From a virus (Duplodnaviria > Heunggongvirae > Uroviricota > Caudoviricetes), in IMG/VR virus record IMGVR_UViG_2648501787_000010: a stretch of 9,406 bases of DNA. One strand, written 5' to 3'. The position numbers and the translations under genes were made by a program. The notes under the pieces are model-generated. The model did no database searches. It had not been told where the DNA came from and saw nothing but the letters and a program-made list of their open reading frames with translations. Position 1 is the first letter of the stretch. Each line of letters begins with the position of its first letter. Below are positions 2,846 to 6,143 of the stretch, one piece after another.

Positions 2846-3030
2846 ATAACCTCTTAATACTTAGTAAAAGTGTCGCGTTAATTTTATCATCTGCCTTGTT
2901 TGGCATCTTTATGCATTGCTATGCAATAGTGTGCAAAGTTTCAATCTTCGTTTATTTATCCGGCGTTACGTGTCATTCTGTACAGCGTTACAAGTTCAAA
3001 GACATAAATTATTCTCTTTGGTGATGAAAG

Positions 3031-3057
3031 GGTCGGAATATTCCGGCCTTTTTTTTT
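3031..3057 (+). terminator. rho-independent terminator on the plus strand (orphan: no plus-strand gene upstream)
   Basis: GGTCGGA-ATAT-TCCGGCC hairpin (7-bp stem with one G-U pair) followed by a run of 9 T at 3049-3057. Confidence 0.55.
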
Positions 3058-3079
3058 GCGTAGTGTGACGGACTCAACT

Positions 3080-3102
3080 GATAAAAGCCGGATTGCTCCG
3101 GC
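3080..3102 (-). terminator. rho-independent terminator for the ssb-containing transcript
   Basis: On the minus strand GCCGGA-GCAA-TCCGGC hairpin followed by TTTTAT, 17 bp downstream of the SSB stop codon (3119-3121). Confidence 0.5.
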
Positions 3103-3118
3103 CTCTGTTACTCGTTGC

Positions 3119-3541
3119 TTAAAACGGTATGTTATCCCCGTACGGATCATCATTTCCCGCCTGTTGTTTTGCCCTGTTCAGTGCGTCAGTAGCCTGCCCC
3201 TGTTGACCTTTTTTGCCGCCCGGTCGCGCCGTTCTGGCACTGATTACACTGTCTGCGATAACCTGCCAGCCCTGCCGCGTTTCGCCGTTCTGGCCTGTCC
3301 ACTGGCTCACCTGCATATTACCCGCCACGCTCAGGAGTTCGCCTTTGTGGTGTTTTGCCAGTGCGTCGGCCTGTCTGCCAAACGCCAGGACAGATAACCA
3401 CATCGTCGCCGTTCCGTCATCTGCCTGGCTGCACGGCAGGGGAACCGCCATACCCGCCATCGCCATTTGTGTCCCTTTGCTGGTGGTCTTTAACTGCGGG
3501 TCAGCCACCAGCCGACCGTAAGCTGCTATCTGTGCTGTCAT
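3119..3541 (-). CDS. ssb: single-stranded DNA-binding protein (SSB-like), 140 aa, with C-terminal ...GDNIPF tail
   Basis: OB-fold pattern parallels E. coli SSB (GRLVADPQLKTT...G..MAMAGMAV versus GNLGQDPEVRYM...G.AVANITLA; W..V.AFG..A...AK...KG versus [21 protein letters not shown]), followed by a Gly/Gln-rich linker and an acidic tip ending IPF, like the DDDIPF tail of bacterial SSB. Start ATG (3539-3541) overlaps the stop of the upstream ORF by 4 bp. Confidence 0.85.
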   Translation of the reverse strand: MTAQIAAYGRLVADPQLKTTSKGTQMAMAGMAVPLPCSQADDGTATMWLSVLAFGRQADALAKHHKGELLSVAGNMQVSQWTGQNGETRQGWQVIADSVISARTARPGGKKGQQGQATDALNRAKQQAGNDDPYGDNIPF

Positions 3542-3816
3542 GCAGTCTGCTCTCCGGTTTTAACGTTGATGGTTGTCACCTGTTCAGCTTCCGCAATCTC
3601 CCGCTCTGTCAGCGTGGCAAAATTTGCCGCCGTCGTGGTCATGAATGCGCTTATCAGTTCGGGATGTGCTTTCGCGTATCCTTCCCCCGCGTGGCGGTCT
3701 ATCGTTCTGATTGCCACCTTTAAAGCGTGCTCTGTCATGTCTAACGCGCGATATTTCGGTTCTGTTCTGTCTCTGCGTTTTTTGAGTGATTTATTAAATT
3801 TCCCTGAAGTGTGCAT
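3538..3816 (-). CDS. hypothetical protein (92 aa), translationally coupled to ssb
   Basis: ORF with GAGGGGG upstream of the ATG at 3814-3816 (spacing somewhat long); an alternative internal ATG at 3736-3738 lacks an SD. Stop overlaps the ssb start. No recognisable motif. Confidence 0.5.
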   Translation of the reverse strand: MHTSGKFNKSLKKRRDRTEPKYRALDMTEHALKVAIRTIDRHAGEGYAKAHPELISAFMTTTAANFATLTEREIAEAEQVTTINVKTGEQTA

Positions 3817-3864
3817 ATTTATTTTTACCCCCTCGTTTAAAAAGTTTTGAGTTGTGCCTCCCCT

Positions 3865-4090
3865 TGTCTACCTTATCTACCTTAGTGGCCCTCATGCCAG
3901 TAATGGCGCGGCTTTCAGCGGGGTAGAGTGCTTTTATCCACTATCTACCCCGTGTCTACCTCCCTGTCTGATTCAGGTAAAATCAGGTAGAGAGGGTAGA
4001 TAGTGGGTAGACAGTAAAAAAAGGCTATCTACCTAACTTAATGCACTGAATTAAATGTATTTTTCTTTACTCAGGTAGACAGGGTAGACA
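3865..4090. repeat. iteron cluster (octamer GGTAGAYA / TRTCTACC, about 11 copies in both orientations); putative origin of replication
   Basis: Copies read directly: TGTCTACC 3865-3872, TATCTACC 3874-3881, GGTAGAGT 3922-3929, TATCTACC 3942-3949, TGTCTACC 3953-3960, GGTAGAGA 3986-3993, GGTAGATA 3995-4002, GGTAGACA 4006-4013, TATCTACC 4026-4033, GGTAGACA 4074-4081 and 4083-4090. Interspersed A-runs and an AT-rich stretch (4040-4070). Lies immediately 3' of the primase-helicase gene. Confidence 0.75.
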
Positions 4091-4104
4091 GCAATTACAA
4101 AAAA

Positions 4105-5859
4105 TTATAAAAACGCGTCGCACTCGTCTGTTGTTATTGCGTTAGTCTGCGTTACTCCCTTAACTTTCCGCGTAATATATTCATGTCCGTAAACTTTCGC
4201 GGCTGGCTTCATAGCCTTGCCAAAGTCATTTACGTTTAGCGGTTTGCTCCTGCCTGCGTACGCCATAAACGCCAGATAGACGCGGTAAAGGCTGTTTCTG
4301 GTCGTGTACTTCACTGAATCGCCACCGCCGCCCATCATCAGGCCGCGTGCTTCCTCCAGAAAATTCAGGAACTGGCAAAACTCAATAACCGGATCCGTCT
4401 GTTGCTTTATTGCCAGTGCTTCATCACCGTCACGCTGTTCAATGAGTAAAGCCCGTGCCTTTTCAGGGTCGGCAAAGTTCGCCAGCAAGCGGCGGATAAT
4501 GACAGGGATTTCAGCCGCGATCTTTTCCGGTAGCTCCCTGTCTTTTTCTGCCTCGCTTACGATGTTATCGAACCGGAATATCACCCGACGACGTGCCACA
4601 CCTCCGGCCCGTTCGGTGAATATCATCGGATTGTTATTGGTTGCCAGCACCACCGCCCTGATTACCGCCGTAAAACGCTTTTCATATTTCGGGTTAATTT
4701 CCACGGGGTCGCCGCCCGTGATTTTCTTGATGCCCGTTCCTTCGCCTGTATATTTCGGCTGGTCTGCCAGGACGATAAGCCGACTCCCGACAACCTGCGC
4801 ACGCCCACCAGCATCATCAAGCGATGTCATCTCAGCGCTTACTGTGTTCTGTTTCCCTGCCAGAAGGCTGGCTATGTGCGTAAATGTACTCTTGCCGCTC
4901 CCGCCGTCTCCTGTGGCCTCAATAAACATCTGCCAGTCGTACCGGTTCGCCATAATCATGTATAGCGCGGCACATATGCGCATCATCTTGCCCGGGTCTT
5001 TTCCGGCTGCGTGATCAAGCCATTTATGAAAGTTTGGCGCGTTGTCGCGGATATTCTCCCCTGGTACTGGCGGCGTGTACTCAATGCCGTTGTGTGTGGT
5101 GATCCAGTTATCAGGCGAGTGCGGGGAAAATTCCCCTGTTTTCAGGTCAAGCACGCCATTAGCGAACGGCAGCAAATCACCGGACGGCTCGCCCATTGGT
5201 TCGGCAATAACTTTTAACGCTTCAATGGCGTTACTGATTACGCGCTTGCTGAAAGTGGCTTTATGTTCTGAATAAATCGCCACCATTTCGCGGCTCAGTT
5301 CCATTGTGCTGACCGGACACCATACCCCGCCGCGCCAGACGTGGATGATTTCACTTTCCGGATGCACACAAACGCTATCAAAGCGATCGACAAGCAGTTG
5401 CGCGCGCTCACTGTCCGCCATCTGCGAAAGCTGCATTTTTTGCTTTACCGGAAGCTCAATAACCAGCCCATCAGAAAGATTCTGGCGTTCACGGGCCAGA
5501 TATTCGCGCCAGTTCTCCACCTTCTTACCGTGCATTCCCTCAGGGTAAAAATTTGCATCCTGTACGCCTGCCGCAGCCAGATTCTGACCAATCGCCTTAA
5601 TCATTACAGGCGCAAGATGTCCGGCTCTGTAGATACGAGCGTATGTTCGGCCTTCCGGTACAATCTGTAGATTATCCAGTTCGGATAGCTGCTGCTCTCC
5701 AAGCCACACAGGAGGCTCATTATCTCCGGCTGTACGCGCGTCGTGTTCCTGCCACTGTTTCGCGTGTGACCAGGCATCACTACCCGCAAAAATGATCACT
5801 TCGGTTTGTTCGTGTTTTATTCCGCGAGGCTGTTTTTTTACGTTCGGTGCCAGTTTCAT
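4105..5859 (-). CDS. P4-family DNA primase/helicase (replication initiator), 584 aa
   Basis: Walker A box GDGGSGKST followed by a hydrophobic-acidic Walker B-like segment (RLIVLADQ), with a large N-terminal domain, consistent with the P4 alpha / D5-type primase-helicase architecture. Start ATG 5857-5859 overlaps the stop of the upstream ORF (ATGA) and is preceded by a GGGGG SD. Stop TAA at 4105-4107. Confidence 0.9.
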   Translation of the reverse strand: MKLAPNVKKQPRGIKHEQTEVIIFAGSDAWSHAKQWQEHDARTAGDNEPPVWLGEQQLSELDNLQIVPEGRTYARIYRAGHLAPVMIKAIGQNLAAAGVQDANFYPEGMHGKKVENWREYLARERQNLSDGLVIELPVKQKMQLSQMADSERAQLLVDRFDSVCVHPESEIIHVWRGGVWCPVSTMELSREMVAIYSEHKATFSKRVISNAIEALKVIAEPMGEPSGDLLPFANGVLDLKTGEFSPHSPDNWITTHNGIEYTPPVPGENIRDNAPNFHKWLDHAAGKDPGKMMRICAALYMIMANRYDWQMFIEATGDGGSGKSTFTHIASLLAGKQNTVSAEMTSLDDAGGRAQVVGSRLIVLADQPKYTGEGTGIKKITGGDPVEINPKYEKRFTAVIRAVVLATNNNPMIFTERAGGVARRRVIFRFDNIVSEAEKDRELPEKIAAEIPVIIRRLLANFADPEKARALLIEQRDGDEALAIKQQTDPVIEFCQFLNFLEEARGLMMGGGGDSVKYTTRNSLYRVYLAFMAYAGRSKPLNVNDFGKAMKPAAKVYGHEYITRKVKGVTQTNAITTDECDAFL

Positions 5860-6143
5860 TTCTTACCCCCTGCGACCAGCATTTCACGGATTTTGCGGAT
5901 ATGACTTGCTGCACGTTTCTGATTTACGGCTTTACGATGGCCCACCAGCGTGAAATCACGCCGGAATTGATAAACAGGCATCACGCAATCATATTCGTAA
6001 CCTTCACGGCGGTAGGTGATGCGCCGTTCTGCCACGCCTTTAATCGTTACCATGCCGCCATATTTATCGCGGTAAATATCGCCGTTCATAAATTCAGGAC
6101 GAGCGGGGCCGCTGGCAGTAACGCCAGAATTTTTATTTTTCAT
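5856..6143 (-). CDS. hypothetical basic protein (95 aa), translationally coupled to the primase
   Basis: ORF with GGAG upstream of the ATG at 6141-6143; stop overlaps the primase start codon. No recognisable motif. Confidence 0.55.
   Translation of the reverse strand: MKNKNSGVTASGPARPEFMNGDIYRDKYGGMVTIKGVAERRITYRREGYEYDCVMPVYQFRRDFTLVGHRKAVNQKRAASHIRKIREMLVAGGKK

Follow-up and report, generated by a model that had tools for sequence, protein, structure and literature searches.

The viral DNA record IMGVR_UViG_2648501787_000010 (IMG/VR; 9,406 nucleotides, hereafter the window) carries on its minus strand, at positions 3119..3541, a gene for an SSB (a protein that binds single-stranded DNA) of 140 amino acids, in which a divergent oligonucleotide/oligosaccharide-binding (OB) fold is followed by a short disordered tail and a conserved acidic C-terminal tip. 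That these positions encode a genuine SSB-family protein is confirmed, with matches far above chance. Judging from its gene order, the window is a Gram-negative phage-inducible chromosomal island (GN-PICI) of the EcCICFT073 type, and the island SSB is probably a functional SSB-family protein of the replication module, acting as a generic, exchangeable replication accessory that recruits host partners via its tail.

The ssb open reading frame (ORF) has an ATG start, comprises 140 codons plus a stop, and matches exactly the span for which an SSB had been claimed. Its product ends in ...AGNDDPYGDNIPF (...NRAKQQAGNDDPYGDNIPF in longer form), directly before the stop codon, and is identical to RefSeq WP_052937691.1, named 'single-stranded DNA-binding protein'; the DNA is a 100% match to an annotated coding sequence in E. 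coli MEW. Residues 5-99 match PF00436 in Pfam (E=9.4e-15; 55 bits against a cutoff of 26), TIGR00621 is matched marginally above its threshold (56.5 bits, cutoff 53.95), and PHROG 44, 'single strand DNA binding protein', spans residues 1-140 (E=3.6e-38). SSBs account for 28 of the 30 PDB sequence matches at E<=1. In an AlphaFold2 model built on 38 homologs, residues 1-104 form an OB core with a predicted local distance difference test score (pLDDT) of about 90, and residues 105-140 form a disordered tail with pLDDT below 50. When this model was compared with the PDB using Foldseek, the top 50 matches were all bacterial SSBs, most with target-normalised TM scores of 0.66-0.80, and the best were S. 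aureus SsbA (7ym1, E=2.5e-9), M. tuberculosis SSB, and B. subtilis SsbA. The SSB OB-fold proposed in a preliminary description of the window is therefore borne out by Pfam, TIGRFAM, PHROG, and the model with its Foldseek matches.

The predicted ssDNA-binding core (residues 1-104; 3230..3541, minus strand) was delimited by an alignment with E. coli SSB (alignment A1, in which the reference is identical to PDB 1eqq_A), the AlphaFold2 model, and Foldseek. The island SSB is only 24% identical to E. coli SSB in this alignment (phmmer E=4e-4), and its sequence affinity is nearer to the SSBs of Thermus/Deinococcus and Firmicutes. The aromatic residues on which ssDNA stacks in E. coli SSB are W40, W54, F60, and W88. 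The last three of these align with W48, F54, and W81 of the island protein, and W48 and F54 are invariant or nearly so throughout the island SSB lineage. In contrast, W40 has no equivalent in alignment A1, because the preceding (L23) loop is shorter, and L49 occupies the position of E. coli His55; leucine at this position is also found in Firmicutes SSBs and is not diagnostic. Compared with the E. coli chromosomal SSB (P0AGE0; PDB 1EQQ, 1EYG), the island protein has thus kept the OB-fold and the stacking positions W54, F60, and W88, together with a disordered tail that ends in an aromatic residue at -6 followed by D(-4)-x-I-P-F. The two tails differ in the linker, which is about 56 residues long and G/Q/P-rich in E. 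coli SSB but 26 residues long and K/Q/R-rich in the island SSB.

The ...DIPF tip of E. coli SSB is the site at which chi, PriA, ExoI, RecQ, and others dock. In the island SSB, the disordered tail of 36 residues consists of the linker (residues 105-130; 3152..3229, minus strand), recognised from pLDDT values below 50 and from allele comparison, and an SSB-Ct-like docking motif, the acidic tip DDPYGDNIPF (residues 131-140; 3122..3151, minus strand), recognised from the sequence and from its conservation among homologs. The stop codon directly follows I138-P139-F140, so that a terminal phenylalanine preceded by proline and a hydrophobic residue lies at the very end of the disordered tail. Among the last ten residues three are acidic and none is basic. 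When the tip is aligned with that of E. coli SSB (...MDFDDDIPF), Y(-6) G(-5) D(-4) N(-3) I P F stands against F D D D I P F: tyrosine holds position -6, the invariant aspartate is kept at -4, asparagine and glycine replace aspartate at -3 and -5, and further aspartates lie at -8 and -9. Both the acidic ...GDNIPF tip of the preliminary description and its remark that this tip diverges slightly from DDDIPF are accurate.

The conservation of the tip was assessed in the best 120 database homologs (72-98% identity, unfiltered). An IPF terminus is present in 108 of them, in the forms GDNIPF (54), GDGIPF (19), GDDIPF (15), EDEIPF (8), SDDIPF (5), and others, and several of the 12 homologs lacking it are truncated or frameshifted entries. 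The tip is therefore conserved rather than accidental. It is kept across at least three unrelated versions of the linker, namely the 136-aa CFT073 type, the 140/141-aa type, and the 149-aa type. Alignments A1 and A2 show no variation at D136, P139, or F140, and N, G, D, E, and S alternate freely at position -3. At greater distance, a HMMER search of 1.84 billion representatives clustered at 50% identity returned 5908 relatives of the lineage at E<=1e-3, with the consensus tail PFDDxIPF. In other genera, 31 island SSBs were compared: 27 have a terminal phenylalanine, which in 19 is preceded by proline, and the context is acidic throughout. Some, such as those with the Klebsiella tail ...PPYDDDF and the Enterobacter hormaechei tail ...HEDDF, are without Ile-Pro. 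The ratio of nonsynonymous to synonymous substitution rates (dN/dS) is about 0.15 for the OB core in every unsaturated pairwise comparison and 0.07-0.13 for the tail where measurable, and ssb is therefore under purifying selection. Synonymous sites are saturated in most cross-genus pairs, and the conservation of the tip thus rests on amino-acid patterns.

The genomic context of ssb is that of a satellite island. A chromosomal island of E. coli MEW, adjoining tRNA-Pro between yejM and yejO, shares 97% identity with the window, all of whose recognised genes lie on the minus strand. Several hallmarks of GN-PICIs are present: an inward-facing tyrosine integrase at one end (8165-9406, minus strand; family search), an alpA gene for a helix-turn-helix protein (7433-7639, minus strand; family search), and, by reference to the 97%-identical island, an attachment (att) site at tRNA-Pro. 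Between alpA and the replication genes lies a minus-strand Icd-like region, named after its annotation in the nearest relative. It is followed by a DUF4222 protein (5856..6143, minus strand; Pfam), a companion of the replication gene whose reading frame overlaps the primase start by 4 nt, and by the Pri-Rep primase-helicase (4105..5859, minus strand), which matches D5_N, DUF5906, and Pox_D5 in Pfam and the P4-family primase C-terminal domain TIGR01613, and shares 95% amino-acid identity with EcCICFT073 pri. As in other GN-PICIs, pri-rep is followed by an iteron and AT-rich origin. The late zone holds a lambda-E-type major capsid homolog (Phage_cap_E; 1805-2845, Pfam), a head-decoration homolog (HDPD; 1454-1795, Pfam), and a 184-aa Nu1-type small terminase (TerS) homolog (356-910; Pfam Phage_Nu1, E=9e-24), all on the minus strand, as are a second AlpA (1100-1444; family search) and a 93-aa ORF from the ORF list (1-282).

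Helper-phage-dependent induction, replication, and high-frequency transfer have been demonstrated for EcCICFT073, whose gene organisation is described in the same reports (PMC6092414, PMC6739421). Its order is DUF4222, primase, a 289-bp spacer, an 85-aa ORF, SSB, perC, capsid (c1499), decoration (c1500), and RppA. Because the gene order of the window matches this prototype, the window is assigned to the EcCICFT073 type; the satellite-island location that had been claimed for ssb agrees with this content and order. One point of departure concerns packaging. No RppA homolog was detectable by BLAST in the window, and the Nu1-type TerS homolog, which is without BLAST similarity to EcCICFT073 RppA, is present instead. 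The strategy by which this island hijacks packaging may therefore differ from the Rpp mechanism of the prototype.

The ssb gene and a small ORF that precedes it lie directly downstream of the presumptive replication origin. The 288-bp spacer between primase and small ORF (3817..4104, unstranded) shares about 95% identity with the DNA 3' of pri in EcCICFT073. It contains (G/A/C)TCTACC iterons in both orientations (3867-4088), including sets that flank an AT-rich stretch at about 4035-4070. Eleven of the 12 TCTACC sites in the window fall within 3867-4088; 2.4 sites would be expected window-wide, and none of 200 shuffled sequences reached 12. The origin of GN-PICIs has been placed immediately 3' of the replication gene, where two iteron sets flank an AT-rich stretch (Fillol-Salom et al. 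2018, PMC6092414). From these repeat counts and the identity to EcCICFT073, the array at 3817-4104 is the predicted replication origin of the island, situated inside its early transcription unit.

The small ORF, orf92 (3538..3816, minus strand), encodes a hypothetical protein of 92 amino acids that is a conserved partner of ssb in PICIs of E. coli and Shigella. It shares 71% identity with the ORF at the same position in EcCICFT073 and belongs to phrog_1231, a PHROG without assigned function; of the 166 clusters that it has in the database, nearly all bear the name Escherichia or Shigella. Neither Pfam nor NCBIfam nor a profile search of PDB sequences gave a match, and the AlphaFold2 model is a low-confidence helical hairpin (pLDDT 58). 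Since the two genes overlap at an ATGA, translational coupling between orf92 and ssb is suggested, and orf92 may be an accessory factor of the SSB or of the origin. Downstream, a GC-rich hairpin (GAGGCCGGA-GCAA-UCCGGCUUU; 3081..3105, minus strand; RNA fold z=-2.45) with a short U-tract lies 14 nt past the ssb stop codon. It is possibly a weak intrinsic terminator that ends the early replication transcript, an assignment that stays tentative because the U-tract is short and a consensus terminator scan did not call the hairpin. The non-coding spacer between ssb and the capsid gene (273 bp, 2846-3118) contains two GC-rich hairpins, the second of which (3026-3053, plus strand) is associated with a T9 run. 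The corresponding interval of EcCICFT073 is longer and contains perC and a 68-aa ORF. This spacer probably contains the boundary of the replication zone with the late zone, or a regulatory region that separates them.

Comparison with EcCICFT073 indicates that the replication module is mosaic. The two SSBs (that of EcCICFT073 is WP_000126698.1, NC_004431 1384538-1384948) belong to the same lineage, occupy the same position after DUF4222, pri, the iteron origin, and a small ORF, and share the tip pattern DDPYGD-x-IPF, the C-terminus of the EcCICFT073 protein being GGDDPYGDDIPF. They differ in length (136 against 140 residues), in an unrelated linker segment, and at position -3, where aspartate stands in place of asparagine; the gene that follows also differs, as perC comes after ssb in EcCICFT073 and the spacer with hairpins in the window. 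A breakpoint lies between the origin and orf92-ssb: primase and origin are 95% EcCICFT073-like, whereas orf92 and ssb are only 71% identical. Conversely, an E. coli island that occupies the same att site, and in which a RepA-type AAA_25 helicase precedes ssb, encodes an SSB 98% identical to that of the window. Recombination has likely also occurred within the gene itself, since the synonymous divergence (dS) between the window and another ssb locus (L004) is 0.028 in the OB core and 0.36 in the tail, a more than 10-fold difference.

The lineage is widespread. DNA resembling ssb is present in 1821 of 5426 complete E. coli genomes, in up to 6 copies per genome, and the match covers at least 80% of the gene in 1084 genomes. 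A cross-genus scan using one genome per species returned 40 loci, from about 20 genera of Enterobacterales (including Escherichia, Klebsiella, Enterobacter, Leclercia, Buttiauxella, Pectobacterium, Serratia, Edwardsiella, Rahnella, and Budvicia) and a few alphaproteobacterial metagenome-assembled genomes (MAGs). A co-oriented tyrosine integrase lies upstream of ssb at all but 9 of these 40 loci, usually 5-10 kb away, and intact SSB ORFs are usually found 70-380 nt downstream of a large replication ORF; at some loci, a small ORF overlaps ssb by 4 nt. The replication ORFs are of several types: D5_N/DUF5906/Pox_D5, a Zn-ribbon-primase with Toprim and DUF927 (about 920 aa), Toprim with D5, and, in the E. 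coli island mentioned above, the RepA-type AAA_25 helicase. Sequenced phages contain no close homolog by tblastn; 98 phage records were matched, mostly from Staphylococcus and Streptococcus phages, at no more than 31% identity. Matches were found in 48 of 72,556 plasmid records, mostly non-mobilizable. Classical conjugative-plasmid SSBs resemble E. coli SSB, and they are not among the listed plasmid matches at the threshold used.

Collectively, this anatomy fits the earlier suggestion that the protein supports island replication, as ssb follows a primase-helicase, a predicted iteron origin, and an apparently coupled small ORF, an arrangement that recurs across about 20 genera. The 'Primase, SSB and DUF5906' have likewise been put in the Replication zone of GN-PICIs and HE-PICIs (Mageeney et al. 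2023, PMC10111431). The following sequence of events can be envisaged. Upon induction by a helper phage, a leftward early transcript would run through DUF4222, pri-rep, the origin, orf92, and ssb, as suggested by the gene order, the overlapping start and stop codons, and the hairpin after ssb, and would deliver primase-helicase, orf92, and SSB together. The primase-helicase would open the iteron origin, and the OB core of the island SSB, if it binds ssDNA as predicted, would coat the strands exposed there and at forks. The disordered tail would present its host-type acidic ...D-x-IPF tip, which would most likely dock the same E. coli partners as host SSB; candidates include PriA, exonucleases or helicases, and, in the Pol III clamp loader, the chi subunit. 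Primers and forks made by the island might thereby be linked to the replisome of the host while the SOS response, the helper, and the island are all competing for host SSB. The generic character of the protein is suggested by its exchange among modules, because the pri and origin of the window are 95% like those of EcCICFT073 but its SSB only 71%, and a 98%-identical SSB occurs in an island with a RepA helicase.

Several points weigh against such a role. A plasmid named pri-ori from EcCICFT073, by its name without ssb, was maintained in DH5alpha (PMC6092414), and basal origin firing therefore probably does not require the island SSB as long as host SSB is available. Because the tip is less acidic than that of E. 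coli SSB, with N(-3) and G(-5) in place of aspartate, it may bind host partners with reduced or altered affinity, and the tails of some genera end in ...DDDF or ...FDGL, without I-P. E. coli W40 has no counterpart, and a homotetramer or equivalent assembly of four OB folds, as in the bacterial SSB family, is putative here. The end of the transcription unit is also weakly marked, given that the consensus scan missed the hairpin after ssb and that in CFT073 perC directly follows. Finally, the literature found on PICI or satellite SSBs consists of a classification-level mention (PMC10111431), and a literature search returned no published functional work on any PICI SSB and no comment on its tail.

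Extra SSBs encoded by other mobile elements provide a frame for weighing the alternatives. The leading-region Ssb proteins of conjugative plasmids (F/pED208 type) are near relatives of E. coli SSB that supplement the host SSB, keep a host-type tail, and are expressed early from the leading region of transferred ssDNA. The island SSB is similarly an extra SSB of a mobile element with a host-type tail, but its lineage is almost absent from plasmids and is found in the replication operon of a satellite packaged as dsDNA. The SSBs of Firmicutes temperate phages (for example, Staphylococcus phages PVL, tp310-1, and StB20-like) are likewise short, at about 130-150 residues, and are the nearest phage relatives of the island SSB by tblastn, with full-length alignments that include the tail; however, they share only 27-31% identity with it and infect another host clade, and no close homolog was found in sequenced enterobacterial phages. 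Phage T7 gp2.5 is an ssDNA-binding protein of another OB-fold family, and dimeric, whose acidic tail with a C-terminal phenylalanine docks the phage's own polymerase and helicase-primase and organises the replisome. It is a functional analogue of the island SSB rather than a homolog, both being element-encoded ssDNA-binding proteins with an acidic tail and a C-terminal phenylalanine. In contrast to gp2.5, the island SSB has a tail that fits the host SSB consensus, and it reassorts among initiator types.

By analogy with gp2.5, the main binding partner of the tail could be the primase-helicase encoded by the island itself, or orf92, and not a host protein. Such an arrangement would suit a gene that always follows a replication initiator and that, in E. 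coli islands, is translationally coupled to a conserved small ORF. It is nevertheless unlikely: near-identical SSB alleles lie behind unrelated initiators (D5/P4-type, Zn-ribbon with Toprim and DUF927, and RepA AAA_25), pri-ori regions 95% identical to one another are paired with SSBs only 71% identical, the tip follows the general SSB-Ct consensus of bacteria, and orf92 is limited to Escherichia and Shigella, whereas the SSB lineage is much wider.

More speculatively, the island SSB could be a competitor or decoy that titrates SSB-interacting host proteins or forms mixed or poisoned complexes, thereby disturbing the DNA metabolism of helper or host. To our knowledge, lambda-type helper phages encode no SSB of their own and depend on that of the host, and a host-like tip on a different core with a short linker, in a lineage whose closest match in any sequenced phage reaches only 31% identity, would be compatible with interference. 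However, in EcCICFT073, interference maps to RppA: deletion of rppA fully restored lambda plaques, with titres nearly at the island-free level, and RppA expression left phage replication unaffected (PMC6739421). This evidence is indirect, because ssb lay outside the screen, whose pBAD18 clones extend in the primer table from c1499 onward only and do not include it (PMC6739421). A competitor function appears quite unlikely.

A further proposal places the protein in antiphage defence, as a trigger, decoy, or shield for SSB-sensing immunity (Retron-Eco8, AbpAB, Hna, DARNA, DRT10) that modulates abortive infection. Several E. coli defence systems are reported to sense phage SSBs, and E. coli SSB is more distant from the island lineage than are the SSBs of phages and of Gram-positive bacteria. 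On the other hand, PADLOC gave no match for ssb, orf92, or the other small neighbouring ORFs that were run, ssb lies in the replication zone and not in an accessory zone, and it is carried stably by a third of E. coli genomes; a role in defence is accordingly judged very unlikely. A broader version, in which the tip on its divergent core and short linker channels host partners (chi/Pol III, PriA, exonucleases) to island DNA and away from an SSB-less helper, or else decoys or triggers SSB-sensing defence, is also doubtful, though no more so than the competitor function. If either form were true, helper interference or the modulation of immunity would be a second function of a gene for replication, one that roughly a third of E. 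coli strains carry. Lastly, decay of a captured phage or plasmid ssb, to which the apparent function of the EcCICFT073 pri-ori plasmid without ssb and the truncated or frameshifted database entries might point, is hardly credible given the low dN/dS of core and tail and the retention of a full-length ORF and tip in the 1084 E. coli genomes and in about 20 genera.

Overall, the preferred reading as a generic replication accessory concerns an unremarkable mobile-element gene, familiar both as a type and by annotation. Plasmids and phages commonly encode additional SSBs that keep a conserved tail, as is well established. The island ssb itself is already known, being named an SSB in RefSeq, present in the prototype EcCICFT073, and listed in the Replication zone of PICIs (PMC10111431). 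If the proposed role is correct, PICI satellites would bring their own ssDNA-coating protein into the host replisome via the universal SSB tail, which would add one small piece to the picture of PICI replication during helper-phage growth. Because roughly one in three complete E. coli genomes carries ssb and EcCICFT073 is genetically tractable, the role could easily be tested; a positive result would be confirmatory rather than surprising, since tail-bearing SSBs of mobile elements are commonplace. Its value is thus modest, as an easily testable detail of satellite replication.

Some additional observations were made within the window and among the loci recovered. The stretch at 6388-7428 (minus strand) contains a 346-aa ORF with a GTG start and no family match. 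In the nearest relative, the same DNA is annotated with an Icd-like gene and an Icd-like pseudogene, and with a YlcI/YnfO gene on the opposite strand; the stretch corresponds to a P4-like immunity ('Bro') zone. No RNA family was found in the window by Rfam at the gathering threshold, and hence no P4-type CI/isrK RNA.

Among the cross-genus loci, one from Kosakonia sacchari (L036, 6657-10363) encodes a 121-aa SSB of the lineage without the acidic tail, directly after a 1110-aa relaxase/LPD7 protein; here, the lineage appears to have been captured by a mobilizable or conjugative element and the docking tip lost. Loci labelled Chryseobacterium sp. (L014), Paceibacterota MAG (L031), and Vicinamibacterales MAG (L034/L035) encode SSBs 49-64% identical to the island protein, the first two also with integrase and/or primase matches, and likely represent contamination or mis-binned contigs rather than true cross-phylum occurrence. 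Additionally, the lineage is found on small, mainly non-mobilizable 'plasmids' of Klebsiella and Enterobacter, namely NZ_CP033626.1 (22.9 kb), OW969669.1 (10.6 kb), NZ_CP047733.1 (15.5 kb), and NZ_CP066112.1 (16.8 kb). As their sizes match those of PICI genomes, these records may be excised circular satellites that were assembled as plasmids.

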